From: Haplodiscus bocki
Taxonomy: Eukaryota
NCBI GenBank assembly: GCA_965655095.1
Contig: OZ296656.1
Location: forward strand, 62,620,001 to 62,684,000
Length of the DNA: 64,000 nucleotides
Direction of reading: 5' to 3'
How positions within the stretch are numbered: the stretch's first letter is position 1; the number at the start of each line of letters is the position of its first letter. A program made the translations under genes and the position numbers. Positions 5,130-43,220 of the stretch are shown here, in pieces. The notes under the pieces were generated by a model. It made no database searches. It was given only the letters and a program-made list of their open reading frames with translations, and was not told the origin of the DNA.

Positions 5130-5295
5130 AACGTCATCTGACGTCATCTGACGTCATGTGTGTATTAATCTTATAAATACTGACGACTCCCAAGTCACAT
5201 GACTAGGTCACGTGACTGACGTCATTCTCGGAGCCAATCCTGTGCTATCTTCATTCTGATTCGCTCCCGAGAGCACAAAAAATAGTATATACAGC
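5130..5295 (+). promoter_or_regulatory. Putative LTR U3 promoter: three CRE palindromes, E-box, CCAAT box, TATA-like box
   Basis: TGACGTCA at 5139, 5149, 5217; GTCACGTGAC at 5207; CCAAT at 5234; TATATA at 5286; all retained in the 3' LTR. Confidence 0.6.
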
Positions 5296-5744
5296 GGACG
5301 AAATTTGCCCCTTCAGAGAGGCGCCGTTTCAGCTCAGACCAGATGTCTAACGACCCGTGAAGTCACTCCATCCATTTTCCAACAACAGTAGATCGAATCC
5401 AGTGCACTACTCTTTGAGCAGTAATCGTTAATTGAATAATGTTTTCACTTTTGCTTTTGATTCTAACTTTTTCTTTCGGCGATATTTTCTTCATAATCTA
5501 ACTTTAACTTTTTCTTCTGATGTAAACTAAATATCCAAGTAACCAAGTTTAACTCCTAACTAAAAAACAGTAAAATAACTGAGTTCAACTTAAACATTAT
5601 TCAACTCAACTTTAACTTAAACTTTTAAAAAAAGTAACTCTTACCGAGATTAACTCTACTTTAACTTTTTTTAACTTTAACTTCACACTAAAATCTAAAA
5701 CACAACTTTCGGTTCTACTCAGTGAAGTTAAGTCAAATCCTCTG

Positions 5745-6230
5745 TGAGGTGGTCTCGTCAAATACGGACTTGTTCAGCCTTGGTCAAGTACCGGTTGATA
5801 AAATATTTACTATCCCTAAAACTTAAACTCTGCTTTGACTTTATTTAACTTTAACTTTACACTAAAATCTAAAACACAACTCTCAGTTCTAGTCATGGAA
5901 GTGAACTACTCAAATTCTCTGTGAGGTGGTCTCGTCAAGAACGGACTCATTCAGCCTTGGTCAAGTACCGGCTTGATCTTTGGAAAAAACTCAAATACTT
6001 TTTGAGGTAGTCTCGTCAAGTACGGACTTGTTCAGCTTTGGTCAAGTACCGGTTGATAAAATATTTATTATCCTTAAAACTGATAACTTTACTTAAGTTT
6101 TATTCAACTTTAACTTTAAACTAAAATCTAAAACACAACTCTCAGTTCTACTCATTGAAGTGAACTACTCAAATTCTCTGTGAGGTGGTCTCGTCAAGTA
6201 CGTACTCAATCAGCCTTGGTCAGGAACCGG
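5745..6230 (+). repeat. Four copies of a 50-bp GC-richer core in the 5' LTR separated by AT-rich spacers
   Basis: TGAGGTRGTCTCGTCAAGWACGGACTYRTTCAGCCTTGGTCAAGTACCGG at 5745, 5922, 6003, 6181. Confidence 0.92.
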
Positions 6231-6821
6231 CTTGATATCTGGAAAATAACTAAAATTTCCTTCTCATTTGAGAGGATCAAACTAGTCTTCAACTGAGGTA
6301 AAGTCCTAGCCTGTGGCGGATTTATTAAAACAATAAACTAAATACTCTCTTTATTTAATCTGACTGATGATTCTTTTAGATGTCCTTGTGTTCATAATAT
6401 TTATAATACTTTTCCTCTTTTGTATCTTTTCTCTATGATTTATACCTTAATTTATTTCATTTGTTTTGATACTTTAATACTATTAACTTTTCTGATATTT
6501 TGTCTTTCTGATTTTACTGATAATTGTAAGTCACCAGTTGATATTATTTACGATACTAATTTATCTGTTTATAATAATAATAACAAGGTTTCTTCACAAT
6601 ATTCACCAGATAGAAAAAGTCCTTGCTTCCGAACTCACGCCTGAGACGACCTTTGCTGAAGTGCAGGAAGGCAACAGTCGCAAAATTGAATTAGGAGACT
6701 TGTCCTGAGTTTAGGGATAGTTTTCTAGCGTGGAATAGAGTGGCTTTTGAGACTTTCCGCTGCTATTCCATAAAGACCAAGACCCCAACCACTCGCACAC
6801 TCTCTACACTTTTGCACTTCA

Positions 6822-7060
6822 CAAACTGGTGCGACAAGTGAGGCTAATCAAACTACACAAACTGGTGAAGCGACCTACCACAACAAATCAGTCAGGCACT
6901 ACCACAAAACTCAAACTGGTGAGTGAGGCTACAGATAAGCCGATAACGACAAACTGGTGAGGAAACCACCCACAAACTGGTGTGACCAACAAGACAGTGA
7001 GGCAGACACACAAACTGGTGAGACTTGAAATTTTGCAGTAAGACAAACCTCAACTGGTAA
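6822..7060 (+). repeat. Dispersed CAAACTGGTG repeats in the 5' leader
   Basis: Copies near 6822, 6858, 6913, 6950, 6974, 7011 and a degenerate one near 7051. Confidence 0.9.
6827..6840 (+). promoter_or_regulatory. Primer binding site of element 1 (tRNA not assigned)
   Basis: TGGTGCGACAAGTG 3 nt after the LTR end; TGG complementary to tRNA CCA; same 9-nt core in element 2. Confidence 0.8.
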
Positions 7061-7147
7061 ATTAAAATTTTAATTTCTTACTTTACTTTAAACTGATAAA
7101 AGAAGCCGTCGAGAGACAGACACCCACGAAACCAGACAATACTGACG

Positions 7148-8419
7148 ATGGCAGAGAACACAGTATCATTTTCTGACTTGGCTTTAGACAAATTCTCAGG
7201 TAACGACCCTGATGAAATTGCAAAATGATTTCTGCTTACAGGTGAAAACAAAATCAACTTGTCGCTTGGATCAAGATCAACTGACGCTGCCGAAAGAGCA
7301 CGATATCTATTCAGAGAGAAAGCACTATTTTCTTCACTTCTTCGAGGAGCAGCAGCAGAATGGTATACAGACTCAATAGGCGATGCAGCAACTTGGGACC
7401 AGATCAGAACCGCCTTCATTGACAGATTTTCAGATAACCGAGACAAATTTAAACACAGAATTACAGCACAGAACTGCGTGCGAGGAAATGAAGAAATAAT
7501 CAAAAACTTCTATCACAGAGTCAAAAGCGCAGTTGACAAAGGATGACCACTAGACCCAAATGGGACCTAGGCCGAGAAAGATAACCAACAGAACCAAAGA
7601 AATGCCAAACACATCGAATTCACAGTTAGAGGAGTCAGACCAACCGGATTAAAAAGAAAAGCTCATGAATACCTAATAGAACATCCGAATGCTACCTGGG
7701 ATGCCTTCCAAACCCATATCACGTCCAAAGACGTCATCTACACCATCAGTTCAGAGCTAGTGCCTAATGCCACCTCAGATCAGAACAACAAACTCCACTC
7801 TCTGGAGCAACAGATCAAAGAACTCACTGCATTATTCAAACAGCAACAAGTAAACCAAATCGCCCAACCTAATTCTCGACCTGCGAACGCTGATAACAAA
7901 TCAAGACCGAATATGACCAGATTCTGTTCATACTGCCGAAGAATTGGACACGCTCTCATGTACTGCAGAACCAAAGCTTTCGAAGATCGGATTAAAAGAC
8001 AACAGACACGAAAAAACCAAGAGCGCCGCACAGGCTTCACTCATGATTACAATAAACGAAGAGGACCGAACTTTGGGTCTCAGATTAATCAGAGTTTCAG
8101 TCAGCAACCCAGATACGGAAATCAGAACAACCAGACACCCTATCAAAAAACTGTCTTCAACCCAGATAGGAACAAAAACCCAAACTCAGATAGACAATAT
8201 CACCAGAACAGATCAAGCAACTCCTGCAACAACGGACCAGATCACCGTCAGCAGGCTCAGTATAACTTCAACGCTGGACCAGAGATTTCTGATACTCAGT
8301 AGAACAAGAATTTTCCACAAAGCAACAACCTACCTACACCCAACTCAGTTCAATTCATCGACAATCCGGGACAAGATGTAGTAAATACCCTTTCAGGTTT
8401 CTTTCATTTAAACTTCTGA
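7148..8419 (+). pseudogene. gag: gag (capsid-like region plus CCHC zinc knuckle), several in-frame stops
   Basis: MAENTVSFSDLALDKFSG..., LRGAAAEWY...TWDQIRTAFIDRF retrotransposon gag motif, CSYCRRIGHALMYC knuckle; colinear with element 2 gag. Confidence 0.9.
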
Positions 8420-8432
8420 TGTCTCCGAGACC
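8407..8432 (+). promoter_or_regulatory. -1 programmed ribosomal frameshift site gag-pol
   Basis: T TTA AAC heptamer in gag frame just before the gag stop; pol ORF at 8419 is in the -1 frame; followed after 7 nt by GTCTCCGAGAC. Confidence 0.8.
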
Positions 8433-11400
8433 TGATGAAAAAAGTAACTTCAGATCACGTTTTCATTTGAATGTCTTCTACTTTCCCACCGAAAACTGCC
8501 AAAAAGACAGTGGACTCGAAATCAACATTATGCTCGTCACTGGTGCAGCCTGCTCAATAGTAAATTACCGAACCTTTCTTGAAATTGCACAATTTAGACA
8601 AATGATCACCGTAGTTAGAATTAAACAGAAGACAAAAACCTACACTGGCGATATTGTACCCATGATTGGACACACTACTCTATCTTTCAGCTTTGATTCA
8701 AATGGAGAACATTAATTTGAACTACGAATTTGGATTACAGAGACACAGACCTCAAATCTACTCGGGATCGATTTTTGCGGACAATGCGTTTCGAAATTAC
8801 ATTTTGAAAAACCAGCAATAGAACTCAAGAACACAGCGAATACTATTTGTTACGGTAATATGTGTTCAACAAATCCTTATCCCTTCGTTTCAAAAATACA
8901 CACTATCAGAATACCCCATCAGATTCACATTGATGCCAAAACTTCCAAAGTCTGGAAATACTCATCAGAAGATAAATCGCAGAGTTTCCCACCAGGGACC
9001 ACATTCATTCCTCATCGACACTCTGTCAAATCAGGACTAGATTTTGTTAATGTACTATGCACCCAATCCGAGAACTATCTTCCTATCTTGATGGAAAAAA
9101 AACAGAAACCACCAAATAAAGCTGAACAAATGAGTTATTGGATACTCTTCACTTGATATCTCAGACTATGAAAGACCCAAATATCAGATCAAAGACTGTG
9201 TCCAGATGGTAGTTTCAATCCTTACTGAGAATGGCCAACATAACGAATGTTTCCTTCTTCATTCCACAGTTCCATGCGAACCTGACATTCAAGATAAAAT
9301 ACAAATACTGATCGGGAAGGACGAAAAAATTTTTCAAGCTAACACCGCCATCGCTCATTGCATTTCAGCCGATGCTAAAATGAGTGAAGGATTTGAAGAA
9401 ACAATTTGTCGTAGAGTGAACGGACTTCAAAAAATTTGTCGAAGAGCCAAAACAACCGTAGGTTCAGCTCTCCCCTATTGGGATCCAGAATCCAACAACT
9501 TCATCTACAATCTCGTAACCAAATCGAAATTTTTCGAAAAACCAAAATTAGACAACATTCGACTCTCACTCGCAAATATGAGAGGACATGCTCTACCTAA
9601 CAACATCACCAAAATTTCAATGCCAAAAAGCGGATGCGGACTAGATAAACTCCAGTGTACCGATGTTTTCAAACTCATACAGGACACTTTCAAATACTCT
9701 GGGATCCAGATTCAGATAATCATCAAACTAGAAACACACTCCATAAGAGGAAACCCGTCATCCAACAACGAGCGCTATGTCGAAGAGGAAGTAGAAAATT
9801 ACACAAACGAATGGACTAAAGAACGAGATGAACTTGAAACTGACTTCACGAGAGCTTCAAAATCCTGTCAACCACCTTGTACCGAACAATTTCCTATCTT
9901 GAGATCAAAACAACTTAAGGATGATCTGATCGATTACTACCTTCAATACCAATCAGAGGACATCAAGAACCTCGTAAAACATTTTGACTTCCGATACACC
10001 AACCTCGAGGAGGAAGAACTAGTTACCCTTATTGATGTGATCATAGACTCCAGAGACGTATAATCTCAACACAATTTCGACATTGGCCAGACCAAACAGA
10101 AATTTCATGTCACCTTGACACCCAATTCAGAGCTCAGAAAACAGCGAACTAGCAAATGCCCTCTTCATCTCAAAGAGAAACTATAAAAACTACTTTGACA
10201 ACTCCAAGACTCTGGTATCATCCGAGAAATGGGGGTTGATGATGAACTAGGATCACACTTCGTCAATTCAATCATTTTACTTCCAAAAGCAGATTACAGT
10301 AAACTAGTCATCGACGCTAGATATCTAAACTCCCTCACCGAACTAACTAACTATTTATGGCCACTAGAGCTACTCCAGATGATTATGACTAGAATCAATG
10401 GCAAAGACTTCACAGCAAGCGATCTTTCATGCGCTTACCACCAAGTCCCTCTATCTGCTGAAACACAGAAACTGACAAGTTTTGTATAAGGAGGAAAGAA
10501 TACACCTATCAAGTTGGATACTACGAACTCTGCGGTCTGCCTCAATGGTTCAGCCGGATGATGGCTATCAAATTCGAACCCCTCATCAAGAAGAAGGAAG
10601 CTATAACCTACCTTGATGATAGTCTACTCCAATCCCATACCAAAACAGAAAAGTATTATGAAAAGTAAAGTTAAAGTTCCTTGGCCACGTTATCTCCGAA
10701 CAAGGGATTCAACCAGCTGCAAAAAGAATAAAAGACCTACAGAACCTGAAATCTCTTGAGAGCGAAAGAGATGTATCGAAAGTCCTCGGATGTCTAGGCT
10801 TTTATAGCTGTTAGATCAAGAACCTGCACGTCGATAGTCAAACATTCTACGAACTGATCAAAGATACTACTCTTTTTATGTGGACCGATCATCATGAAGT
10901 ACTTTTTAAGAAGTCAAAACCAGAATCACCGAAGACACTATATTGGCAGTACCTTCAACCGAGTATTCCTTCCACATACACGTCGACCCTTCTTATGTCG
11001 GAACCGGTTGCATACTAGTCCAACAAATTCCCGAAGGAAAGAGAATAGTCTCTTTCAAATCTAGAGTTTTTGATAACGCCGAGCAAAACATGTTGACCCT
11101 CCACTGCGAAATATATGGAATAATATCTGCACTACAAACTTACGAACAATATATCATTGGATCGCCCTTTCCGATCTATCTCTACTGTGATCACAAACCC
11201 ATACTCTACCTTTGGGGAAGAAAAGGACAGCTATCAAATCGATTTTTCAAAGATCAAGTCATCATCACTAAATTCCACAACCTAAAGATCATTTGGACAC
11301 CTGGATCAAATCTCGCCTTCCCCAATATTCTCAACAGAAACGTGACATTATCAGTGGCAAACAGATTGCAACTTCAACATAAAGAAATTCCGCTTGATAT

Positions 11401-13878
11401 TTCATTCTATTACCAAGACGGTCACAAAGTACACTAAACCATCAAACACGAAGAAGAACAAAACGCATCCTACAACGACTGCTACCCCATCATCTGCCAA
11501 GAAGGCAATACGAGAAAGACCCTCAGACTTAAAAACGATGGAAACGAACATCACGTTGAGGATTATCTCGAAGATAATGAAATCCTAGCCACCATGCAAG
11601 AGATGACTGACTGCTTTGAACTCAGAAAGACCATTAACCAATATAAACAACTTTGCTCAAGCATTAGCCCAGCATCAAGTACCTTTAGTCTTAACGAACG
11701 CGACTATAGTGATTTTGAACAGTATGATGAAAAATCAACAGATGACGAAACCGAAATAGCCGAACTCAACCTTGAAAGTCAAGACCCTGATTTTCGAAGA
11801 GATCACTCCGTAGCTCATGAATTGTTCCGCACGAAGACAAAAGATAAACCGATTCTCAAGAAACCGATTTCTTTCGAACTGTTCCCTCACGTAGACACAT
11901 CCGACTTGATTCAGAAACTCAGTGATTTTGCTCGCGACGCTGACTTAGACATTCAAACACTACTAGAAGAACAACTCAACGATCCTGTATTACAGGTCGT
12001 TCGCAAATGGATGAAAACCTCAGATACAAGACCTCAGAAGACACCGGATATTAACCAATCAAAAGCTCTGCTATCATATCACAACAAATTTGAACAACTT
12101 CTCATCGAACCTGACATCAACCTCCTATGCTACAGAGAACCGATTCAGGATACCTGCAGAACCGAGATGAAAATTTGTGTTTTCTTATCGCTATTCCTAC
12201 CACTCTTTCGTTTAGCCCACACTCATAGCCATAGTGGTCATCCTGGAATATTCAAAACCTTGGAAAACATCAGACAATACTTCTTCTGGCCAGGACGATA
12301 CAAGTGGATAGTATACCTGATAGAAGACTTCATCGAATGCCAAACTAATAAAACGGAAAGACATGACCTACACGAAGCACCATTGGAACAATGGGGAGAA
12401 CTAGAAACAACACCTTTCAAGACGATACATATCGATCATAAAGGACCATTTCGCCCTAGCAGTAACTCCAACACTCATTGTCTTGTCGTGGTAGACGCGT
12501 TTTCTTGACTAATTGGAGCCTATCCAGTTAGAGACACCGGAGCCCAGACCACTATCAACGCAGTAGAAAAATGGATCACATCATGTGGTATAACCCAGAG
12601 AATTGTTCAAGATAACAGTTCAAATTTCATAAAAAGCGACTTCTTCAACTGTACTAAAGAGTTTGGAATGACCCTTGCTCCTCGTACTACCTATTCTCCA
12701 TGGACCAACGGCAAAGTCGAAGTACAAAATCAGCACCTCACCAGATACTGGCGAAACTTCATGAATCAATCTGGAAACAATTGGTCAAAACTTGCATCCA
12801 AATTTGCGTTAGCACATAACACGAGTGTAAACTACACAACTGGCCAGACACCTTATGAGATCGTTTTCCGAACAAAACCGCAGATTCCAATGACTCTTAA
12901 GCTCGGACTATTACGAGACAAAGATAAACAATGCAAATCAGAAATCTGTGATGGACTTCAATCTCATACGCACGGTGAAAACAACCTGCCGAATAATTCT
13001 CTTAGCCGCCTACTTCGACCAGAGCTTTCCGACGAGCTACTAAAACGAGAAAATGAATTTAAGCGAATTTACTCGTCAATCTATCAGAGGTGTCGCCGGA
13101 TTACGTCAAAAGTACACGAGCACCGAAACCGATTCAAGCTCGGACGACCTATCGGCACCGGACAAAAAGTGTTCTTAGAAAACCACGCGCAAGACCTCAC
13201 GAGGTCTCAGAAACAGAACCAACTACGAGTCAGTCCGTTCACAGTAACAAAACAAATCACGAATAAGACGTACGAAATACGAGAAGATGCAAATCCCGAC
13301 AATATCAAAAAGCACGCATAGAAATCACCTGATCGAATATCTCCCGAAAGAAGAACGACTCCCTCCGTTTATTACTAACTACGCTGTCATATCCAGAGAC
13401 TCCGATTTCTCTAAACATTTAGTCAATTCGCAAATTAAACAATATGAGTCCGGTAAAGAAAAACACTCCCTTGACGTAATGCCCTTTATTATAATACCCA
13501 TCCAAAACAGTTCAGACAAACAACAAAAAGATAATAATGAATTTTCACCTATAGCAGTCTCTGGAATACATTCGCCTGATATTTCAATGCAGCAATCACC
13601 CAGAAGTCAAAAACCGAGCCCTTATGAAAATAGAACATTTTTTCACCTACCCCAATTACAATACTTTGCCCACGACTCCTATGCTTAGACAACCGCACGA
13701 TCTACCAAACCCAATACGCGATTTTCAACCTTTTAATTGAAATACCCCAACAAATTTAACTAGTGCTACCGATAAAGGCAAAATAGCCCACTTCGCGACA
13801 AAAGTTAAAAAGAAGTATAAAAAAAATGATGCTAACAGCTCACTCAGAACACTAGAAAGAAAGGGATACAAAGACTAG
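8419..13878 (+). pseudogene. pol: pol polyprotein: protease, dUTPase-like segment, macrodomain, RT, RNase H, unknown spacer domain, integrase; multiple stops and frameshifts
   Basis: LVTGAACS (mutated DTGA), LVIDARYLN and YLDD (RT), IHVD...CDHKP (RNase H), HTHSHSGHPG, HIDHKGP, NGKVEVQN (integrase). Confidence 0.95.
9299..9724 (+). CDS. TARG1/OARD1 (Poa1p-like) macrodomain embedded in Pol between protease and RT
   Basis: AIAHCISADAKMSEG, FIYNLVTK, KPKLDNIRLSL, ISMPKSGCGLDKLQ match the TARG1 motifs LAHCISED, YIYYLITK, KPTYENLQKSL, LSMPRIGCGLDRLQ; uninterrupted within ORF 9206-10063. Confidence 0.93.
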
Positions 13879-13918
13879 AGCAATTCATTAAAGAACTATT
13901 CACAAAACAAAAATTTAA

Positions 13919-14425
13919 TCAATCATCAATCTCGAGGTGGCCGCCAGTTTCTGCGAGAAAGTCGAGTATTTCTCGGTACTTGAACGTCTCTTCCCAGCGC
14001 TGTATAATTTGTCTTTTCCCCATGTATCCAAGGGACCCATACCCAGCCTGGATGGCCTCCAGCTTGTGCCAAAGCACATCTCCAAAAGGGGCAACCAGAG
14101 AAGCCAACCACTGAAACAGAACAACATCATTTTTGCAATTCGAGGAACATCAACTACTAGAAGAACCAGAACATTAATATTGCAAGCCAATGAACATCAA
14201 TTAACAAAGGAAATTTGAAGAAACAAAAACATCACCAATCCTTACATCATCCCCGGCGACGACTTCCAGCACAGTCACAAATGACTGTGTAAAGCTCATC
14301 TTGACCATGTCGTCTCTAATGAACAGTGGCATTCTCAACTCTCTTACTATGGAGTGCAACCTCGCCATCTCTCGAGGACACCAAAAAGCTGCCCAGACTG
14401 CACCATCGGGAGTTAGCTCTGCCAT
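13919..14425 (-). CDS. Candidate two-exon antisense gene, 123 aa, unknown function (exon 1 14425-14246, intron 14245-14111, exon 2 14110-13919)
   Basis: GAT|GTAAG donor, TTCTGTTTCAG|TGG acceptor, T-rich 135-nt intron holding three in-frame stops, in-frame join ...VVAGDD|WLASLV..., ATTAAA immediately after the stop. Confidence 0.65.
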
Positions 14426-14799
14426 CTCAAGAGTAATGATGATGAAATTGAATGAAGAACAGAAACACAAGAAAATGTGAAGTTTCACTTTCACGCATCC
14501 CCATGCTAGTTCAAAAAGTTCCCAGATTTTGTTCAACGGCGGTGGGTCTACTCAGTCGCAGAAGCAACTTCGTAAGCAAACGTAAAACAAATAAGAAACG
14601 TACCGTAAAGAATTTTGAAGTCAGACTGACGAGCCCAAAAAAAGGAATATCTTAAAGATAGAATCCCATCTGTTACACTAAACAACAATTGACGACAAAA
14701 CCAACAAACCTTTTCTTTTATGCAGCCTTTGTTCAACTAGTCTTTTGTCCCACCAAACCTCTCTCTACCCTTTGCTAATAAACAAACTTTTGATTTATC

Positions 14800-15115
14800 C
14801 ATCTATTGTTTTAACCTTCGTTTGTTCCACCCGTCTATTGTTCAACACATCTATTGTTCAAACCTTCTTTTGTTCCACATATCTATTGTTCTACTCTTCT
14901 ATTGTTCTGAACCCTTTTGTTCTATCGCTCTATTGTTCGATGCTTCCTTTGTCATAATCTTCTATTGTCTTACACTTCTGTCATTTTACTCGCCTATATC
15001 TCCCTACTGTTACAACCTTCTATTGTCTTAACACTTCGCTGTTCCACTCCTCTATTGTTAAACAGCTCTACCGCCTCTCATAAACAAATTTTTGTTTTAA
15101 ACACCTATTGTGCTA
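14800..15115. repeat. Imperfect tandem array with ten CTATTGT motifs (AACAATAG on the - strand, SOX/HMG-box-like sites)
   Basis: CTATTGT at 14803, 14835, 14851, 14883, 14899, 14930, 14962, 15020, 15052, 15105 plus TTTGTT variants. Confidence 0.85.
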
Positions 15116-15284
15116 ACACCCCTTGATCCACTGCAAATCCACATTCCAGAATTCAACTAAATAAAGAATTGACGTAAGCAAAATCGATGATACGGTCGTG
15201 TTCGATCACGCTACCCAGAACCAAATTTTGAAGAATCATAAAACTGAAAGGAGTATAAAGTGTAAATACATGATTTTCAGTTGC

Positions 15285-16059
15285 ATGCCTAACATAGAAG
15301 AAAACGCGAGAAACCTAATCAACTGGTATATCCTTCCCATAGAACCCCAAAACTACCATCATAGAAGACAACACTTCACCAGAAACCAAAATCCACCAAA
15401 CTAAATAAAGTTGCAGTAACAACTATCTTGATGATTTCTAAAACAAATAACACAATCGTTGAAATATTCCAATTTAAAAAGAAAGACCCACATTGCATTC
15501 TCCTACATACAAGAAACCCTCAGACTAAAGAAAAGAAGCTAATTGCCTTCATAGAAGGAACCCTATATTTTCCACTTTTTGAAACAGTCTTCACGCTTCC
15601 ACATGCCATCCCGTCCAATCTACACCTAGCCGAACTAACAGCCATAACTGATTACAATGATGTTTGATCTTGACGAAGAAATTTACGACGAAAATTAAAT
15701 TGAAGAAATTGAACTCAACTGCCCATGGACCATAACCATAACCTCAGGAGCAAGTCATGGCTTTATGACAACAAAACTCAGAAGGTCATTTCAATACCCA
15801 TTTTGGCTAACAGCTAGTATCTACCCCATTGACAAACCCGCTAAACCAATCATCCTTGATAATAAAAGAGAGACTCTTGCCTTCGCAAAAACTTTTCATC
15901 ACTCTGACTCTCTACAGGAATTATCCTGAACCGCATCTCACTCAACACGATATTCATACTTTACGAGAATTAATGGACACTGCAAAATTTCACATGGGAC
16001 CTCACACAAGTTACTACACAGAATATATAAAGAAGATCATACAGAATCCATTCAACTAA
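15285..16059 (+). pseudogene. Degenerate accessory ORF of unknown function (~250 codons) between pol and env
   Basis: Consecutive ORF fragments 15198-15404, 15428-15667, 15829-16059 with the A/C-rich composition of the element's coding strand; TTTTCAG acceptor-like site at 15280. Confidence 0.5.
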
Positions 16060-16098
16060 AAGTCGTCTTTGCTGATGGTGACAGCTTTCCTTCCCTAT

Positions 16099-16325
16099 AA
16101 CTAGTGGTGCTAGTTTTACACTGGTGGTGCCAGTCATATTCACTAATCTTTTCATTTCAGGCGCATTTGCTTTTCTTAGCTAGTGGTGCTAGCTCATTAC
16201 CTTTTCCACTGGTGGTGCCAGTGATGTTCACTAATCTTTTCATCTCAGGTGCATTTACTTTACTTAGCTAGTGGTGCTAGCTCATTTCCTTCATACCACT
16301 GGTGGGTGGTGCGTGGTGCCAGTGA
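16099..16325 (+). repeat. ~87-bp repeat x3 containing hairpins with a constant TGGTG loop and splice-acceptor-like sites
   Basis: AACTAG-TGGTG-CTAGTT 16099, ACTGG-TGGTG-CCAGT 16120, AGCTAG-TGGTG-CTAGCT 16178 and 16266, CACTGG-TGGTG-CCAGTG 16207; CACTAAT-pyrimidine tract-CAG|G ending at 16160 and 16248. Confidence 0.85.
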
Positions 16326-16441
16326 TGTTTGTTAACAATTTGCTTTCAGATACAAAATAAAAATCTCTTGACTTTCTCTTTCAGACGTCTTACCAATACT
16401 TTCCTTTTCAGCATTAACAAAATTTTATTTTCAGCGATTTG

Positions 16442-16605
16442 TTCCGGCTTAAAAGTGCCGAAGAGTGTCTTTCCGGTTTAAAAGTACCGACGTGTTCCGG
16501 CTTAAAAGTGCCGAAGTGTGTCTTCCCGGATTAAAATTACCGATGTGTGGCAATTTCCGGCTTAAACGTGCCGAAGGGTGCCTTTCCGGCTTAAAAGCGC
16601 CGACG
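16442..16605 (+). repeat. Six tandem copies of TTCCGGCTTAAAAGTGCCGA (small hairpins)
   Basis: Copies near 16442, 16471, 16495, 16524, 16555, 16584; CGGC/GCCG stem changes to CGGT/ACCG in copy 2. Confidence 0.9.
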
Positions 16606-16860
16606 CGTTCTTCATTTTCTGGCTAAAGTTATCGCCGTGGCCAATACTTTTGACTTCAATTCTTCATAGCACCTCGACCAATCATTGTAAAATCCTTTCA
16701 ATTTCTATGCACCTTAAACACTACATTGCTAAAGAGCTTCAGTACAAACCTTCTTCGTCATTCGGTTAGCGAGTTGCTACTTTTATCCTTGTAATAACAT
16801 TTCTCTATTTTAGCTAAAATCGGAGAACCGTTTTCATTTGTGATAATGAATAGTGAAAAG

Positions 16861-18964
16861 ATGGCTATCATAGAATGTGCTATATTTCTCTTGATACTAA
16901 AATATTCTATATGTGACAAAGACGAACCCAAACCTGACGACATTGCACCTTCTGTACAAGTATCCCACTATGACTGCACAAGATGACGGAAAACAACCTT
17001 TATTCACTCAACGAATTTGAACCTAGTAATATGGCACCTCAGACTATTCAGATGAATGACGTGAAATTGACTTTGTATACCAAACACTTCCGGACTGAGA
17101 TCAATGCTACAATTTGCCGAATCAAACACCAAAGAAACAGATTTTTTTGCGGGCTGCATGATCTTACTAGTATTGATGTTGAACAACCTCAGATAACAAG
17201 TGACACAGATTTGATTCCTGAACAATGCAAGCAAGCCTCTGAGGGAAGATCACTAACTTTATTTGACCATAAATTAACTTTCGAAAAGGACAAGAAAAAA
17301 ACTCATCACAAATGGACTGGAAATGTAGATGGAGACAACCGTAACCGTAATGGGAAGGTTACCAATGGATAACTAAAGATACCATTGAAAGTCATATTCA
17401 AGATATCACCTTGAAAATGAAAATTAAAGATGGCAAGATATTCAACAGAAACGATCAAATACTACCTTGTGACTCGGAAAAACTTGGATGTGAAAGTACA
17501 TCATTAGATCCTTATGCCTACACGTGGAAAGCCCCTGAAAATTGGATCTTATCAGTGCTATAAGAAGACTATGCACATATGCTAAAAAATGACAACCACG
17601 ACTACATAGTTAGCGAAACCACTTCAGAAAACAAGTACTTCTTCGAAGTAAAGAATAACCCTCAGCATCTTTGAAACAAACCAACTGAAGTCTACCCAAC
17701 CATTTAGGGCTCAATGTACGTCGCAATTCACTATGATGGTTTTGAAATGAAAAGAGGACGAAAACATAACGAACTGGGACCTCATCTCTTACAGTATCAG
17801 AATAACGCCTTCTTCTTGAAACCTGGGAATCTCTACGTGTACAGTCCCCAACCTAAACCAGCTGACCCATGAATTAATACATGGTTAAATATGGACTACG
17901 AACTACAACAAAGTACAAAGCTTGATTACCTTTTCTTTGAGAGTTCCAGAGCACTACAGGCATCAGAACTAAATCTATTGCAGAACCAATGTGAACAAGA
18001 GAGAATCCAAGTTTTCACTATCCTGATGTTATCACTTGAAAACCCCAGACTCGCAGGATATACGCTCACTGGAAACAGATCAATGTTTCTAGAGACAGAT
18101 GGAAGCCTAGCTTGGCTCTACTCCTGCCCACAAGTACGATCACCCCTACATACCCTTAACCAATGTTACGACAAAATACCCATCCTCTATAAAGGACAAA
18201 TACAATTTGTAGATCCAATTACCAGACAAATCTTGCCCGCTGCTTTGCCACAAAACTACTCCGACCCAATCAACAATTTATTGCAAATGGATATGGACAA
18301 AAAAGACTCATGGTACTCCCTTACACCCGAAATCACGCACAGAGACAGACCTGCAGTATTCGCCCCCAAAGACATATTTCCCTTCAATACGCAAAAGTTT
18401 CCCCAATCAGCTAAAGCAGGTATGTATACAAAAGGACAACTCAGTGATTATTGGGATGCCATCCTAATGAGTTCAGCATCAAAGAATGCCTTACAGAAAA
18501 TTACACTAAACTTAATAGTCCCCTCAAATGCAAAGAAAGGCCCTGATGGATATAGCTACTACGCACCCCGAACTGACTTCTTCGTAGATAGCATGATATG
18601 TCCGAAAAAATTCGAGAACAAATTTGTCCCGTTTTTTGGGACCATTAGCTATTGGCTCGATAAATGTGGAATCTGGTTTGCCAAATTCCTCTTCGTAAAA
18701 CTGATTATTGACATTGTTGTCACTATCATGAGAACCTTAGGAATACACCGAATAACCAGAAGATCAGTCAGTTTTGGAAAAATCCTACTATCAGCAACGT
18801 ACAGCCTCTTCGTGGTTTCAATATTTAGCTCAGTCTATTCACCAGCCAAACCCATCGAGTCTTCGACGCCTATAGCTGTAGAAATGCAAGAATCCACAGA
18901 ACATATCTACCCCTCTGTTCAAACACTACCCAACAATGCCCCTAACTCAGTTTCACCCGTTTAA
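16861..18964 (+). pseudogene. env: env-like glycoprotein, class III fusion protein-like (chuvirus G / herpes gB-like pattern), disrupted
   Basis: Signal peptide MAIIECAIFLLILKYSIC, VSHYDC...YSLN, Cys-rich ectodomain, NQCEQER...LAGYTLTGNRSMFLETDGSLAWLYSCP, C-terminal hydrophobic segments; colinear with element 2 env. Confidence 0.82.
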
Positions 18965-18994
18965 AGTACCTATTAAGTTTTCAATTTCACCATT

Positions 18995-20240
18995 ATGCAC
19001 TAAGACGACCATTCGTTCTCCGACCTAGACTCTCTTCTATCTAAAGACAATATCACAGAAGACGACCTCCTACAGCTTTCAGAACTATTCCCTGAAGAGC
19101 CGAAAACCCCTTCTAAACAAACCTCCATCAATCACGAGCTAGAGAACCTCTCACTTACACCAACTGACAAACCTACAATTGCCCTAAACGTTAGACCCAG
19201 TAATCGAAAATCAACTACCCCCTCACGTCAACTGTTTCATAAACAGAAGAAAAACGAAGAAGCCACTTCCAAATACATTACCACCCAAAACCCTCAGTTC
19301 CAATTTAACCTGACCTACAGAATTAAAGAGAATATTAACCAGGGGAGAATAGTATTTTGGGACTCCAAACGACAAGAGTTCACCCTAGAAAACCTATCAC
19401 TTAAATATCACTGACTATCTGTCCCCCTCGGATCAATTTCAGCAATCTGTTAAGTTTATCTCCACCTTCACTGAAAGAGAAATTTGATGACGAACAACTT
19501 CTTAGTACCGCCCTTGCTATTGAACTAGAAGATGTCAAAAAGACCTTAGCCCAATTCAAATTAGACAAATCCAAACCCCTACACAAGGGACCCTTCAGCT
19601 TGAAAGTAGATTTCTAGATAAAGAGGAATTTTAAAGAGATGGTTGATATTGAATCTCGACTAGAGAAACTAGAACCGGGAGCACAACCCCGCGATTGGAA
19701 TTTTTATGAGATTTTTTGGAAGCTTGAAAACTTTTCAATAATTTTCAATAAAGCCAAATTTTTTGAAGAAACGAAAAACAAAAATGATACTGATCCAAAT
19801 TTGGCACGCGACTTTTGTAGCACAGCTTTTCTCAGCAAACCTTATGGCTACAGTTTCTTTGTCCACGCGTTTCCTTATGGATGTGGTCCAGCACTTGGCA
19901 AATCAATGTCTATCACTATATCTCTGATCTCCGAACACTTCGACGATATCCTCACTTGGCCTCTAGAGGAACAATCCAAATCAGTGTTTTCAGACAACCC
20001 AAATCTAGTTTAATCTGGACTAACTTTTTGAAGACTAATGATAAAACGACACCCTGTTTCTGACGACCATCACCCATACAACCAAACCCCAGTTGTGGTT
20101 TCTTCTCCTATCTTCCCCACGAAGAAATGTTCAAGTCCGATAGAAACCTGATGAAGAACAACAAAGTCTATTACCAAACAAAAATTCTTGATTTGCCGCG
20201 AACCCCGGTTTCAATTTCATCAAGCGTGAACCCCCGGTGA
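18995..20240 (+). pseudogene. Post-env ORF4 (~410 codons, disrupted) ending in a short coiled-coil plus TRAF-type MATH domain (approx. 19700-20190)
   Basis: IFWKLENF, FCSTAFLSKPYGYSFFVHAFPYGCGPALGKSMSI, FDDILTWP, RGTIQISVFRQ, CF*RP...NPSCGF...LMKNNKVY follow the TRAF-C consensus (IWKI, S.PF....GYK, NG.G...GTHLS, YD.LL.WPF, F.RP....N...G, KDD.IFI). Confidence 0.87.
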
Positions 20241-20242
20241 GA

Positions 20243-22247
20243 TGTCGTGTTTGACATACAGCAGAAAAAACAATAGACTCAACTCCCGAGATAATAACGT
20301 CATCTGACGTCATCTGACGTCATGTGTGTATTAATCTTATAAAAAAAGACGACTCCCAATTCACATGACTAGGTCACGTGACTGACGTCATTCTCGGAGC
20401 CAATCCTGTGCTATCTTCATTCTGATTCGCTCCCGAGAGCACAAAAATTAGTATATATAGCGGACGAAAATTGCCCCTTCAGACAAGCGCCCTTTCAGCT
20501 CATACCAGATGTCTAACGACCCGTGAAGTCACTCCATCCAACTTCCAACGACAGCAGATTGAATCCAGTGCAGTACTCTTCGAGCAGTAATCGTTAGTCG
20601 AATAATGTTTTGACTGTTGCTTTTGTTTCTAACTTTTACTTTCGGTACTATTTTCCTTATAATCTAACTTTAACTTTTTTTTCTGATGTAAAACAAATAT
20701 CCAAGTAACCAAGTTTAACTACTAACTAATAAAAACAGTAAAATAACTAAGTTTAACTTAAACATTATTTAAAATAACTTTAACCTAAACTTTTCAAAAA
20801 AGTACATCTTACCGAGATTAACACTACTTGAACTTTATTTAACCTTAACTTCAAACTAAAATCTAAAACACAACTTTCAGTTCTACTCATTGAAGTGAAC
20901 TCAAATCCTCTGTGAGGTGGTCTCGTCAAGAACGGACTCATTCAGCCTTGGTCAAGTACCGGCTTGATATTTGGAAAATGCTCAAATGCTCATTGAGGTA
21001 GTCTCGTCAAGTACGGACTTGTTCAGCCTTGGTCAAGTACCGGTTGATAAAATGTTTTTTATCCTTAAAACTAGTAACTTTACTTAGGTTTTATTTAACT
21101 TGAACTTTAACTCTAAACTAAAATCTAAAACACAATTTTCAGTTCTACTCCTTGAAGTGAACTCAAATCCTCTGTGAGGTGGTCTCGTCAAGAACGGACT
21201 TATTCAGCCTTGGTCAAGTACCGCTTGATAAAATATATTCCATCCCTAAATGTTAAACTCTGCTTTAACTTTATTTAACTTTAATTTTAAACTAAAATCT
21301 AAAACACAACTCTCAGTTCTAGTCATGGAAGTGAACTACTCAAATTCTCTGTGAGGTGGTCTCGTCAAGAACGGACTCATTCAGCCTTGGTCAAGTACCG
21401 GCTTGATCTTTGGAAAAAACTCAAATACTTTTTGAGGTAGTCTCGTCAAGTACGGACTTGTTCAGCTTTGGTCAAGTACCGGTTGATAAAATATTTATTA
21501 TCCTTAAAACTGATAACTTTACTTGAGTTTTATTCAACTTTAACTTTAAACTAAAATCTAAAACACAACTCTCAGTTCTACTCATTGAAGTGAACTACTC
21601 AAATTCTCTGTGAGGTGGTCTCGTCAAGTACGTACTCAATCAGCCTTGGTCAGGAACCGGCTTGATATCTGGAAAATAACTAAAATTTCCTTCTCATTTG
21701 AGAGGATCAAACTAGTCCTCAACTGAGGTAAAGTCCTAGCCTGTGGCGGACTTATTAAAACAATGAACTAAATACTCTCTTTAAATAATCTGACTGATGA
21801 TTCTTTTAGATGTCCTTGTGTTCATAATATTTATTTCACTTTTCCGCTTTTGTATCTTACCTCTATGATTTATACCTGAATTTATTTCATTTGTTTTGAT
21901 ACTTTAATACTTTTAACCTTTCTGATATTTTGTCTTTCTGATTTTATTGATAGTTGTAAGTCACCAGTTGATATTATTTCCGAAACTAATTTATCTGTGT
22001 TTAATAACAAGGTTTCTTCACAATATTCACCAGATAGAAAAAGTCCTTCCTTTCGAACTCACGCCTTACACCACCTTTGCTGAAGCGCAGGAAGGCAACA
22101 GTCGCAAAATTGAATTAGGAGACTTGTCTTGAGTTTCGGGATAGTTTTCTAGCGAGGAATAGAGTGGCTTTGGAGACTTTCCGCTGCTATTCCATAAAGG
22201 CCAAGACCCCAACACCTCACACACCCTCTACACTTTTGCACGTCACA
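20243..22247 (+). repeat. Element 1 3' LTR (2005 bp) with six copies of the 50-bp core
   Basis: TGTCGTGTT...CACGTCACA followed by TSD CGGA; cores at 20913, 20994, 21175, 21352, 21433, 21611. Confidence 0.96.
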
Positions 22248-25200
22248 CGGACAAAAAAGGTGGGTTCCAAATCGGCATCTGTGTTAACAGGAAAGTAGTC
22301 CAGAGAAACACAAGTGCTTTGGATATTCAAAAATAAAACAAAATTTTCAAAACTCTCAGTCAAACCGTCAATCATTGAAGTAATCATCAGGAAAAAGTCC
22401 AAGAAAGTATATCAGATAGTTAAAAATTGCTGTAGATCTCCCACATACACCTGAGTTGCACTTAGAGAGAAAAGCAATCATCCAGTCAGACGAAAAAGGA
22501 CTGTCTAAAAGAAATGGTAGGTGGAGATTTCTCTGAAGGTCTACAGATTCGAAAACGTAATCTGCGCAATACAATATTTCAAGATAAATTTATGAGACAA
22601 CTTTTACAGACTGATGAAATTGAAAGCAACGGTGCAATTGAACATTGAGTGTCCTATAATTTTTTGCCACATCTTTCTTAATATGTAAAAAAACTGTTCA
22701 TTCAGTAGGGTTGCTTTTTTTTCAGTCTAGTTTCGCCAAATCTTTGTATTCGAAAACAAATATCAGCAGTGGGGTTAAAACGAAAACTTTTCAAGCAGCA
22801 GTTTGGGGTTCAAATCTCTTTCCTGTCGTTTTTTCTGCCTTCACTGAGCTTTGTTACAACTTCTTCTGGTTACCAGGCATAGTTGGTGGGACAAAAGGGT
22901 TCTGAAACGCTAGTTACTGCTTCAAATCACAGCAGGTACCTGATAAGTTGTTATTATTAGTACAAGTTCGCATTATGACGATTGTTTTATTGTTCTATTC
23001 ATGTCGAATTTGTTATTTTTTGTTGGTTTTTAGTCGGTGTTTTATGAAATAAATTGTTACGTCTTGTAGGTACTTTGTTTCTTCTTTAAAAAAAACTTTT
23101 TGTATTATCACAAACTTTTTAGAGATGTTAACGCATTTACCATTTTTCCTTTAGTTGACCTCCCCGGTGAAATTCTTGAAAACATGCAACAGCAGTTAAA
23201 AGCAGGCAGAGGCAAGCACTCAAAAACACCTGGAAATTTTTTCTACAAAAAAATTCGGTACTGTTCCCGAGGCAAACTCATCATACCCCCTTTATTGCGC
23301 AAAGCTTGTTGATACCAGGAATATCCAGAAACACAGACAGAAACCCCATCGAAAAATTTTGGCACTTCCAGACATAAAACAGTTTCAAGGAAAAATGTGA
23401 TGCCCAGCTTCGCATCGCATTCTTCGTACCAGAAGATTTCAAATAGTAAAATGGCCAACTCAGGAACTTTTTTCTGACAAACAAAAATGTTTCGAAACCT
23501 TTTTGTGATACTCCTTTCTATTGTTTACCAACACTTTTGCACCGGACACATTGGCAGCGCAAAGACATCCAGAAACACAAAAAATGTGAAGTAGTGCCAG
23601 AAACGGTCTCTTACTATTTTTTCGGTACTGTGGTATCGTGAGGAAGCAAGTTTTCAGCTTTTCGACAATTTCTGGTCATACACTCATAGAACTTACTGAA
23701 GCGTTTGCGCTGGACAGATGAGCAGCGTTGACTCTGACGTGTTCTCGGTTTGCTAAAATGGTTTCCGTCCAAAAAATTCGGGAAAGAAAAATTGTCACTT
23801 CAGTTGGGGAGTTTTTTTCTTTTTCCAGATTTTGCGAGGGTCACGCAAACTTTGTGTAGGAAACTGATTAATCTCTCTCGAAAAACATATCTGAGATGCC
23901 ACCGCAGACAGGTAGCCCCAAACTAGAAGGCACCAATTCTTTTCCGAATTGGTTCTGTGTTTTCCCAACCATTGTACGTTTTTGGTTCTCCTTGATCTAC
24001 AGTACAGTTTTTCTGATATACTATAGTATTTTTCTGAGTTTCGAAAAAAAATTTCTGCAGAAATGAATTAACTCGACTTAATCCAAATTTTCGAACAGTT
24101 AGCAAAAGTTTGACTTGGTCAAAAATTTTAACTTTCCCAAGTAATTAACATGAATTTATTGTATGGATTCAGTTATGAAATTGGAAATATTTGCCTTCAA
24201 AAGACTTCTCCAGCGAGTGTATTTTGTTTTACGTATCTGGGTTGCAATTAAAAGAACTTTTTTCCTGGAGCAAGTCGTTGTGTACGTTGTAAACTCCTTA
24301 GAGTCAGTCAGGCTTAAAAAACAATTGGTGCTTTTTGTTCTCAAAAATCGAATTTTTCACCCGAAACATTCGACTGGATTCTTCCACGAAAACGACAATC
24401 AACAATCTTTTAGCAGTAGAAATTCTGCTGTTATCGGAAAGCTGGCATATGAGACAGGGATCGATTATGCAGAGATTGATTGGACAGGTATTTTTCTAAA
24501 CAGATTTATCAACCTAATTTTTCACAAAACTACCTGCGGCTTTTCATCGATCAACGTCCTCCTTGAACATTGTCACATTGTGAGAACGCGTTGAATGAAA
24601 AATTTTGCTGTTTGATCTCTTCAATAGAAACATTATTCGGCCAAAGCCAGCAAGACTTGCAATTTCGTATGACGAATCTCTACATTCAAATTGTCTTCTC
24701 TTGAAGACTTTTGGCTCTAACTCTTCTGCCAACGTCTCATTCGACAGTTCCGTACTTGCAAAACATCCTTCAGCAATGGCATTTTAATACCGGTTTTTGC
24801 ATTGGAGCTTTTGTGGATTGAATTGATAAGCAAACTCGATTTTTTTTCTTTGCAAAACAAACTGGTTGAACTCTGCCATCATAGCCTCGGTCAACTTTTT
24901 CTATCTCCAGAACAATTTTCGTATTTTCCCGTTGCTGGAAAATGTCATGGCCTCGCAAACTTTGAGGACCGGTGTATCCAAGCAATGGGAGTTGTCTGAT
25001 TTTTCTGAATACAAACTTGCTTTCCTCAAAATATCTTTATGCATTCCAATCAACAAAGTATCAGTCCACTCTTTTATTACCTGTACACATCGGAAAACTT
25101 CAATTGTTGCGTTTAGTTCCCAGCAACACAAAATTGATAAACCGCATGTGTCAAAATTACACGAATTCATCTCGATGATGAAATTCGATACTTTCAAAAC

Positions 25201-31204: not shown

Positions 31205-31722
31205 TGTTGTAAACCGGGGGTTCTTAAATTATTGCTTTGCTCTCACTTGCGCATAAGTCTCAAAAAGTTGTTATAAAAAGAACATAAATTTTAGAAAGGT
31301 CTTTTACAAATATTGGAAAATTCTAAGTCATGAGCTTTTCTGACTTAGCTGTTTTTATAAATAAGTCTTAGTGAAAATTCAAGACTCTTTGTCAGTTGAA
31401 TTTCAGGGGTGTTTTAGAGAGAGCAAAGGAAAGAGAGAAAAGAACGACTATTGCCTTCTTAACGTCCGCATAGGATCGTTTGTTTCTGTTAGCGTATTTT
31501 TCTCTCTAGCTCAGGACAGTTGTTCTGTCACGCGGCTTTTCCTTATTGGCTGAGCGTTAAAAGAATCGTCTTTTGCAATTTCATGCGAGCGCGTTGCTAT
31601 TCGCTCAGACAATCTAAATGCTAAGATAATTCCTCTTCGGATATTATTTCTCTCTGAGTCATTTTCCCTGGATATTCTCCTTTAGGAAAATGAACTAAAT
31701 TAAACGGTAGCGCATTGCTACA
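31205..31722 (-). repeat. Element 2 3' LTR (518 bp)
   Basis: Near-identical to 43239-43756 (about six substitutions by eye). Confidence 0.97.
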
Positions 31723-31826
31723 ACTCACCCCAGTTGACAGAGAAGACTGCTTTAGCCGTAATATTCGTCAACTGATAAAAAATAACAAAAGAATAAATCA
31801 AGAAAAGATAATATAATGTATGCAAT

Positions 31827-33509
31827 TTAATATTTAAATGTTTTAACAGAAAGATTAATGTTGAAGAAAGGTTGAAAGGGTGCAAAATGTTTGTAAGCAA
31901 GAAAAGTTATTAAAAGGTTTATGAGTTGAAAGTTTGAAGGGTTTTGACTGTTCTTCAACTCAGTTATTCCTTCCAGTGGGAACGTTTTTTCATCAATGGG
32001 CCATGGGAGACGGGTACATTTCTCTTTCCAGTTAGGATCTTTATCAAAATTGTATGCAATGGGGTAATATATTGTTGAGAGTTGAGTCTTGATGTTTCCT
32101 CGTTTAATGTTGAAAATTGAGTACTTCTTGTACTGTTCAACGTCCCAATGTTCAGCATGGGTAAGAAGTGCATGGAGACATCTTTCTAGCTTCTCATACT
32201 GCTGATCATCAACAGCTTGAATTAGCTGTATGGCCTCAGCTCTTTGGATGTCTATTTCCACTCTCATTACTTGTAATTGTTTGACCAGTTTATCGATTTC
32301 GGTCTGCTCTTTGATCTGGGCAGCTTTTTTATTCAAAGACTCTTGAAATCGTTTATTAGCCAGATCATACTCATCGAGTTTTTTCTTTAAGAGTATGTTG
32401 GTCTTAATCGACTCTAACAATTCAGATTGAAGAGACTCCGCTTTGGAGGTCACTTCCTCTAATTGTTGTCTGACTTCTTTGTTCTCTTCGAACAAGTCAG
32501 ATGTCACTCTTTCAGAGATTTCTACCTTTGATTCCGCGCGATCCGCGTTAATCTTGGCATTTGCTCTTGATCTGTTAGCACACCTCAGAGAAACTTTCAA
32601 GTTGTTCAGTTCAATTAGTAGGTTCTTATTCTGCTGTTCAAATTCAGCAATTGCAAATTCGGTGTCCCAGAGTGATGCTGTTAATTGAGTATCTGGTTGG
32701 AAATCGGAACTTTCTGGGTCTGTTTGAGTTCCAATTGATGTTGTTCCGGTTGAATAGGATCGATTACAATTGCGAGTAGTAAAATTAAGATCTGCCTGGC
32801 TTGACGAATTGCTGGGCAAATATGATGATAAAGGGCTGTTGAAAATAGGATTGGGGTCGTCAGGGAACGCAGTGACGACACCAAAGGGAGCTTTAATAAG
32901 AGAGTTCAAATCATGATTGTAAATCACGTATTTCCTTTCGTCTGGGATCCTGTCCTTTAATCTCCATTGATTAAGGTCTTTAGGAATGTTCACCATCAGG
33001 GCAGAACTTCGATTAGCAGGGATTACAATGGAACAATTCAATTTTTTATTGAAGAGTCTGACTTCTCCAATACTACGGGGCAAAGACCATTCATTACAGT
33101 CTTTACGAATGCCATATTTAAGAAAAGATATAAATTGTGGATCAGCGTTATCAATATTCAGTTCCCGCTCTCGTTGAATTTCCAATCTCTCTTTGAGACT
33201 TGGAAAGGATTTTTTATCCTTCGGGAGACCATCATCCAAACGTGAGAGACCACGTGAGGGTCCTTGTCCATCATCGAGTCTCATTGACAAACGATGAGAG
33301 GGTTTAGGATTATTGCCAAGTCTCATTGACTTTTTGGCACTGATGTTTTCTATTGATTCGGTGGCAACACGTTTGTTGGCATTTTGGTAAATAGAGACTG
33401 CCTTTTTATTAATTCGTCTTGCTTTTCTGGGCTTGAAGGTAACGTTAGGGGGTCTCAGGTCACTGGGGATAAAACCTTCAGGCTCGAATATTTCAATAGA
33501 GTCAGACAT
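31827..33509 (-). CDS. Post-env ORF4, 560 aa, intact, long coiled-coil, unknown function
   Basis: Uninterrupted ORF between env and 3' LTR; heptad-rich E/K/Q/L region roughly aa 285-440. Confidence 0.8.
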   Translation of the reverse strand: MSDSIEIFEPEGFIPSDLRPPNVTFKPRKARRINKKAVSIYQNANKRVATESIENISAKKSMRLGNNPKPSHRLSMRLDDGQGPSRGLSRLDDGLPKDKKSFPSLKERLEIQRERELNIDNADPQFISFLKYGIRKDCNEWSLPRSIGEVRLFNKKLNCSIVIPANRSSALMVNIPKDLNQWRLKDRIPDERKYVIYNHDLNSLIKAPFGVVTAFPDDPNPIFNSPLSSYLPSNSSSQADLNFTTRNCNRSYSTGTTSIGTQTDPESSDFQPDTQLTASLWDTEFAIAEFEQQNKNLLIELNNLKVSLRCANRSRANAKINADRAESKVEISERVTSDLFEENKEVRQQLEEVTSKAESLQSELLESIKTNILLKKKLDEYDLANKRFQESLNKKAAQIKEQTEIDKLVKQLQVMRVEIDIQRAEAIQLIQAVDDQQYEKLERCLHALLTHAEHWDVEQYKKYSIFNIKRGNIKTQLSTIYYPIAYNFDKDPNWKEKCTRLPWPIDEKTFPLEGITELKNSQNPSNFQLINLLITFLAYKHFAPFQPFFNINLSVKTFKY

Positions 33510-33692
33510 GAGGAATGTTCTGAAATTAAATCAAAGAAGTGAGTAAACAAAAATTGAGGAAAATATGTTGAGAAAAAAAAGATTTAAAAAAATTCAACAC
33601 AGCGAGTAAATAAGTGTTTTTTTGTTTTTGTTTTCGTTTTCCCCTTTTTTTTCAATTTTTTCGAGTTTCTTTTTTCTGTAAAGTTAAAAAAA

Positions 33693-36083: not shown

Positions 36084-36106
36084 TGCTGTTTTAAGAAAAA
36101 TGAGAA

Positions 36107-36194
36107 GCACTAGATGTTGTAAATGCATAAAAACACCAGATGTTGTTATAGAAATACCAGATGTTGTATTATCTACAGAAACACCAGATGTTGT
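36107..36194 (-). repeat. Four internal copies of the element's own LTR-end/PBS junction (ACAACATCTGGTG)
   Basis: + strand GCACTAGATGTTGTAAA 36107, CACCAGATGTTGT 36134, ACCAGATGTTGTA 36156, CACCAGATGTTGT 36182 versus the true junction GCACCAGATGTTGTAAA at 43231. Confidence 0.9.
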
Positions 36195-42347: not shown

Positions 42348-42595
42348 TTTCTATTTAACAATTTTAGTTGCTCCAATTTTGTTCGATTTTGTGCTCTTTG
42401 CACTACAATTATCTATTCAAGTTGCTTTAACTTGAAAATGCTCCTTTGTTTATCGATTAATCACGTAATTATACTGTGATTTTGTTATTACGCTTTGTAA
42501 TAACAAATGAAATTTTGAATTTTGTGTGGAAGAGTGTCTTTTACTCTTTCACGTGCTTCGCTTTGAATAAGAATTTTATTCAACTCAAAATTTGT

Positions 42596-43098: not shown

Positions 43099-43220
43099 AA
43101 TTTGAAATATTTGCTTTAAATACTTCATTTTTGCAAGATAAAACCCACCCCGGGAAAAAAGATGAAAAATTGTATGCTCGGTGTTTTGGTCATACAAAAT
43201 GCGGAGTGATTTTTGTTCTT

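Follow-up and report, generated by a model that had tools for sequence, protein, structure and literature searches.

Does a gene of signalling type carried by a retroelement encode a protein that the element keeps, and if so, where did it come from and what might it do? This question is raised by a stretch of 64,000 nucleotides of the Haplodiscus bocki genome (contig OZ296656.1, positions 62,620,001 to 62,684,000; the whole stretch is called the window, and its own numbering is used below). In this window, a TRAF domain is encoded by the final gene of a gypsy LTR element with env, 17.3 kb in length (4899-22247). A sequence-only reading of the window copy had described a single open reading frame behind env, encoding an intronless, retro-captured TRAF decoy that could dampen NF-kB or cell-death signalling.

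Structure and state of the element

The element has the features of Ty3/gypsy elements with env, namely LTRs with a target-site duplication, gag, the order PR-RT-RH-IN and an env-like third gene, all on the forward strand. It is bounded by the same 4 bp at both ends (4895-4898 and 22248-22251). The 5' LTR (TG...CA; 4899-6823) is 94.4% identical to the 3' LTR (20243-22247) over 1,741 aligned bases, and the latter lacks the stretch corresponding to 4923-5100 of the former. Between the LTRs lie a zinc-knuckle gag remnant with a broken frame (7571-8302; 86% identical to a sibling gag frame) and pol fragments encoding protease, reverse transcriptase (RT), RNase H and integrase (8293-13688; Pfam RT_RNaseH, E 2e-18, and Integrase_H2C2, E 1e-12), which match the 1,662-aa open pol frame of a sibling at 79-88%. 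Within pol, between protease and RT, is a macrodomain resembling TARG1/OARD1 (9341-9718; PDB sequence matches, E 7e-21). The env fragments (16974-18964) encode a mononegavirus-type fusion glycoprotein (PF24664, Monjiviricetes_fusion, E 1.1e-22 and 8.8e-8). Every gene of the window copy is broken.

Two further features were observed. Tandem subrepeats of 175-260 bp occupy 5563-6256 and 20731-21686 inside the LTRs, and their number varies between the 5' and 3' LTR and from copy to copy. Small open frames that are 65-82% conserved in siblings of the same family (family A) lie between pol and env (15365-16059).

Two genes between env and the 3' LTR

The post-env region was re-examined in 51 family A copies. 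Forty of these were scored among the 326 candidates of a DNA search of the genome, with identities of 82-89% when the window itself is left out; the other 11 came from a protein search that favours open frames, and three of these share one tandem cluster. The region contains two genes in the siblings, ORF-A (152 aa) followed by ORF-B (248 aa), which correspond to 18995-19453 and 19456-20201 in the window. The single frame spanning 18995-20240 is therefore rejected. The ORF-A stop is kept in 50 of the 51 copies, and the ORF-B start site lies 2 nt (38 copies) or 1 nt (13 copies) past it. At the site equivalent to 19456, 44 of the 51 copies have a start codon, 61 codons ahead of the protein start at 19639 proposed earlier, which is likewise rejected. 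The ORF-B stop is found at the site equivalent to 20199 in 47/51 copies. From the end of ORF-B to the LTR the distance is 41 nt in 36/51 copies and 40 nt in 2/51 (not measurable in 13/51); an end 2 nt before the LTR, as previously described, is a read-through peculiar to the window copy.

Decay of the window copy accounts for these differences. Its ORF-A has stops at 19001 and 19412, and the junction between the ORF-A stop and the ORF-B start (19451-19458) has lost the start codon. The N-terminal part of ORF-B (19456-19707) has a stop at 19615, whereas the TRAF-C (MATH) domain (19708-20201) has a frameshift at about 19951-19962 and a stop at 20061, both of which the sequence-only reading had located, and lacks the usual stop at 20199. 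ORF-B of the window is thus a pseudogene, and the start and end first assigned to it are artefacts of the missing start codon, the extra stops, the frameshift and the lost terminal stop.

ORF-A consists of a disordered N-terminus and a conserved C-terminal block of 55 residues with three predicted strands, the only part for which its structure model is confident. The block is conserved in five element families (A, B, D, F and G, described below). ORF-A gave no notable Pfam match, no Atlas match and no Foldseek match at E 0.001, and the family D version used as a query retrieved family D copies only. Close stop-start arrangements such as AUGA and UAAUG serve termination-reinitiation in RNA viruses. 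Here, the ORF-A stop and the ORF-B start are separated by 1-2 nt in family A and overlap as AUGA in family B and as UAAUG in family D. The start of ORF-B at the ORF-A stop in three families suggests, on sequence grounds, that ORF-B is translated by stop-start coupling behind ORF-A.

Identity and predicted fold of the TRAF domain

The TRAF-type MATH domain noticed at first reading was confirmed by HMM search. The window frame 19618-20010 matches Pfam PF21355 (TRAF-mep_MATH) with E 1.8e-8 and 35.2 bits against a cut-off of 27.4, and also matches TRAF4 chains in the PDB; the piece past the frameshift, with the stop read as X, weakly matches the C-terminal part of PF22486 (E 0.036). Translated with X in this manner, the window copy reaches 127 bits with a host-clade TRAF profile, compared with 2.4 for the best of 500 shuffles. 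This profile was built from 14 homologues, including P0191, whose label as an element sequence is assumed.

In intact siblings, both MATH models (PF21355 and PF22486) are matched over their whole length. Modelled with AlphaFold2 (mean pLDDT 79), an intact sibling comprises two helices and a beta-sandwich; the helices are predicted at residues 6-39 and 51-74, with a low-confidence loop between them, and would form a TRAF-N-like stalk in the N-terminal part of ORF-B. With this model as a query, the Foldseek matches listed were TRAF domains only, with E values down to 1.8e-13. Pfam scans of intact siblings contained no match to RING or zf-TRAF, in agreement with the earlier observation that RING and zinc fingers are lacking, and a RING pattern scan with a working positive control was negative. 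A complex prediction with two host-clade TRAF chains and one family A protein gave 0.54, against 0.35 for a single unrelated control, and is given no weight in either direction.

Purifying selection

Selection was measured in family A from the 46 of 49 copies that passed the filter, variants common to at least three copies being counted as shared. For the MATH domain, shared variants (N = 61, S = 129) give a pN/pS of 0.12, and the corresponding values are 0.14 for env, 0.25 for ORF-A and 0.26 for the N-terminal part of ORF-B. The two shifted frames of the family A MATH domain, which served as off-frame controls, give 2.14 and 1.95. Single-copy variants of the domain give 1.78, a value that is inflated because shared alleles occupy synonymous sites. 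In family B, shared MATH variants give 0.17 (30 copies, from loci chosen by HMM score). Since element copies are related rather than independent, Fisher p-values overstate independence; the contrast with the off-frame controls is nevertheless clear, and the TRAF gene is under purifying selection. ORF-B is almost certainly a real, selected TRAF gene.

A clade of element families with a TRAF gene

A PF21355 search of the genome yielded 2,967 candidates, a figure that does not represent copy numbers; 150 were scored and all 150 lay above the cut-off. The order env-ORF-A-TRAF is common to families A, B, D, F and G, and was found in 10/10 loci of families F and G. In siblings, gag, pol, env, ORF-A and ORF-B are all separate genes. 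The domain is family-wide, selected and in the same place in five families, and the first reading was correct in calling it an integral part of the element. LTR pairs of single copies with an open TRAF gene are 99.5% (A), 99.7% (B) and 99.9% (D) identical; these families have thus been active recently with the TRAF gene open.

The TRAF domain of family A is only 30-33% identical to those of B and D. Identities in pol are 79% between B and D, 63% between A and B, and 60% between A and D, an order that agrees with the TRAF tree; with the pol of the TRAF-less neighbour in the window (31205-43756), the three families share 48-50%. The pol macrodomain is also present in families B and D, and is absent from the TRAF-less neighbour. 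No match to BIR or BCL2 was obtained in the element frames scanned with Pfam.

The TRAF sequence might be a neutral passenger of replication, as the broken state of most old family A copies would allow: an open frame of at least 240 aa from the ORF-B start site is present in 7 of the 40 copies chosen by DNA likeness. Against this stand the shared-variant pN/pS of 0.12, compared with about 2 in the off-frame controls, which give no hint of an overlapping signal, and the retention of the gene in families whose TRAF domains have diverged so far. The selection test rejects a neutral passenger, and this explanation is hardly credible.

Several loci depart from the common layout. Tandem units of the env end, ORF-A and TRAF with a 2.8-kb period occur in family A (G000:C10:65794265-65805848), and tandem TRAF units with a period of about 1.8 kb in family G (C4:103372051-103398064). 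In L027, P0155, P0180 and P0197, internal deletions have fused env sequence, in frame, with a part of the TRAF domain. A family D element (L043; G000:C1:34977446-34987445) is truncated soon after the ORF-B start and lies about 3.5 kb from a conventional host TRAF exon on the opposite strand. The window itself contains a second env-bearing gypsy element on the minus strand (31205-43756), with 518-bp LTRs that are 98.8% alike and no TRAF; its 567-aa post-env frame (31827-33530) belongs to no known family and shows at most a faint likeness to ORF-A (E 0.02). In a metagenome scan for relatives, 13 loci were found, all distant (25-35% identity), and 0/45 candidates among viral contigs qualified.

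Probable host origin of the TRAF gene

The two best PF21355 matches in the genome, L021 and L022 on contig C5, are spliced host genes. They have a GT-AG intron of 186 or 349 nt inside the MATH domain, which the elements lack. In a TRAF tree of 43 rows, 15 of them conventional TRAFs, the element rows and those of the host subfamily (L021, L022 and the homologues P0126-P0137) form one branch against the 15 conventional TRAFs (100/99). The tree label "element" is an assumption for P0186, P0190 and P0191; the first two resemble family A, and a search of this genome at E 1e-60 gave no match for P0190. The element rows split into two well-supported groups, one A-like and the other containing B, D, F and G. 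With the labels used, they form a single clade in 0% of bootstrap trees, and the AU test does not reject such a clade (p 0.456). Element proteins and the host subfamily have an insertion in the MATH domain in common, and families B and F retain an N-terminal motif of the host subfamily. The host subfamily, which is 33-39% identical to family A, has a zinc-finger remnant and a longer stalk.

Capture of the TRAF gene by an element from the host is very probable, and it is likely that this happened once. In the opposite direction, the host subfamily would be a domesticated element gene that gained introns later, and the tree, which does not fix the base of the element and host clade, would allow it. 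Nevertheless, a zinc-finger remnant exon of the kind typical of cellular TRAFs survives in the host genes, they have close homologues from several other sources on short branches, and TRAFs are otherwise cellular; such a reversal is therefore highly improbable. For host-to-element capture, the claim that the gene was retro-captured holds as regards host origin, which the tree makes most likely, whereas the intronless state fits RNA-mediated capture without proving it. P0134 and P0137, host-clade homologues from other sources, read through the intron site as the elements do, so that the intron was possibly gained after capture and the host intron may be the younger of the two.

N-terminal RING and zinc fingers are a feature of all TRAFs save TRAF1. 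A fish TRAF5 query located exons for RING and zinc fingers in a conventional TRAF of the host (contig C8), and no such exon in the stretch of about 28 kb ahead of either L021 or L022, where an exon may have been missed. The first coding exon of L022 opens with a methionine 16 residues ahead of the zinc-finger remnant, as in P0135-P0137; for L021, a search designed for short exons found no first exon. The host subfamily itself thus appears to be RING-less, and the missing RING of ORF-B was therefore probably inherited. The tree places the element gene with host TRAFs, as the sequence-only reading had supposed, but the nearest host genes do not appear to be RING-bearing proteins from which a decoy would have been cut. 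To regard ORF-B as the copy of a host adaptor of TRAF1-like, RING-less type is more apt than to regard it as an E3 that was truncated.

The host TRAF subfamily also has decayed copies at dispersed sites (L077-L091, L095 and L101; for example, G000:C3:129361213-129364338). They are often arranged as inverted pairs and share about 72-77% DNA identity among six compared; in two contexts of 20 kb, neither pol nor env is present. An insert of 130-139 nt is present at the intron site in 8 of 17 of these non-LTR copies, and the last exon was not found in the other 9. They likely represent a second, DNA-level mobilisation of the host TRAF family.

Predicted function of ORF-B

Host TRAF signalling is the probable target of ORF-B. 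In TRAFs, it is the stalk and TRAF-C that trimerise and bind receptor tails (PMC6125299). In the model favoured here, the helical stalk of ORF-B would trimerise, its TRAF-C groove would occupy the tails of receptors or adaptors that host TRAFs use, and the signal would not be passed on, since the protein has no ubiquitin-ligase domain. ORF-B would then compete with host TRAF signalling as an inhibitor and dampen defence or cell death, a reading to which a probability of about 0.5 is given. The presence in the same elements of a macrodomain resembling ADP-ribose erasers fits a counter-defence kit.

The lack of a RING does not by itself make a dominant negative, as had been presumed, because TRAF1, which is RING-less, plays negative as well as positive roles (PMC11117997). 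ORF-B could instead mimic a RING-less host TRAF and switch on a survival, proliferation or death pathway that favours the element. The positive roles of TRAF1 are compatible with this, as is the TRAF of the virus ISKNV, which promotes caspase-8 apoptosis, though it bears a RING (PMC3352826); moreover, if the donor was already RING-less, no poison subunit was created by the loss of a domain. However, at about 33-39% identity to the host genes, and with most of the host N-terminus lost in family A, the element TRAFs fit a changed role better than faithful mimicry, and an activating role is considered unlikely.

Residues of the receptor groove were compared with a fish TRAF5 row as the anchor. 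The hot spots of the TRAF2-type groove (R393, Y395, the serine triad and C469; numbering of PMC6125299) are not kept in the elements: only the R393-like and F456-like positions are retained in family A, and the serine triad is absent from both the host subfamily and the elements. At the R393-like position, family A has R and family B has Q. Because the TRAF2-type groove is not kept and this position varies, partners may differ by family. As for the pathway, the genome gave no match to the Rel domain with PF00554, a single query that exon-split genes can escape and that does not prove absence; with PF00020, one TNFR cysteine repeat was found and no more. The proposed link to NF-kB thus finds no support, and inhibition specifically through NF-kB is improbable.

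The start of ORF-B provides evidence for a different role. The PAM2 consensus is given as LNxxAxEFxP (PMC7356810), and in families B and D a PAM2-like motif that follows this pattern save at the E position is present at the ORF-B start in 27/30 and 41/42 loci, respectively (for example, L028:2713-2748, minus strand, and L128:2155-2190). The motif also occurs in the single family F locus read. ORF-B might therefore have been repurposed as an adaptor for the RNA or particle cycle of the element, linking, for example, element RNA to a ubiquitin enzyme or to poly(A)-binding protein, rather than acting in immune signalling; the variation of groove residues between families and the failure of PF00554 to find a Rel domain would agree with this. 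Yet family A has no such motif although selection on its MATH domain is equally strong, and the match is one of pattern, the Pfam scan of family B and D proteins having made no PAM2 call. A role confined to the RNA cycle is accordingly rather unlikely.

Competition with host TRAF signalling is thus retained as the preferred reading. A broader proposal is that these families form a large and still active invertebrate clade of env-retroelements resembling complex retroviruses, in which a stop-start cassette ending in a captured, groove-diversified RING-less TRAF, fused in some families to a PABP-binding motif, would together with a captured macrodomain disarm innate defence against retroelements. 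This proposal is tentative and somewhat doubtful as a whole.

Comparison with known systems

Invertebrate defences against retroelements beyond small RNAs are poorly known, and genes captured and kept by elements point to them. Here, a donor subfamily in the same genome, five family versions, measurable selection and young open copies make function directly testable.

A gypsy-borne TRAF-C beside a mononegavirus-type env is already known from Burro/GYPSM1, a giant gypsy element of planarians; the present layout differs. The original papers on Burro/GYPSM1 are reportedly those of Jurka in 2007 and Grohme in 2018. Burro likewise combines MATH_TRAF_C with an env akin to mononegavirus fusion glycoproteins, and its authors too propose interference with host apoptosis and ubiquitination (PMC6431247). 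In Burro, however, TRAF-C forms part of a polyprotein of 4,873 aa or belongs to an accessory ORF further upstream, env stands between gag and pol in the same frame, and domains of the BIR, BCL2, ankyrin and SUMO-like types accompany TRAF-C (PMC6431247), whereas the TRAF described here has a gene of its own at the end of the element, behind an env that is itself free-standing and behind ORF-A, and is traceable to a host subfamily.

Virus-borne TRAFs such as ORF111L of ISKNV and those of other megalocytiviruses also have a coiled coil and a MATH domain and are closest to host TRAFs; ORF111L differs in belonging to a DNA virus, keeping its N-terminal RING, binding TRADD and promoting apoptosis (PMC3352826). 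The likeness to mammalian TRAF1 is one of architecture only: TRAF1 is RING-less, has a coiled coil and TRAF-C, and regulates TRAFs without being a ligase (PMC11117997, PMC6125299), but it is a cellular gene and has retained the TRAF2-type groove, unlike the element proteins and their relatives in the host.

No publication on a post-env TRAF gene was found in a search made mostly outside subscription journals and without repeat databases. The terms TRAF and MATH have zero occurrences in the main text of a 2026 survey of env-bearing retrotransposons (PMC13524379, term search), the supplements of which may contain them. Alongside Burro, the elements described here would represent a second, differently built uptake of TRAF-C by gypsy elements, suggesting that TRAF signalling has exerted pressure more than once.
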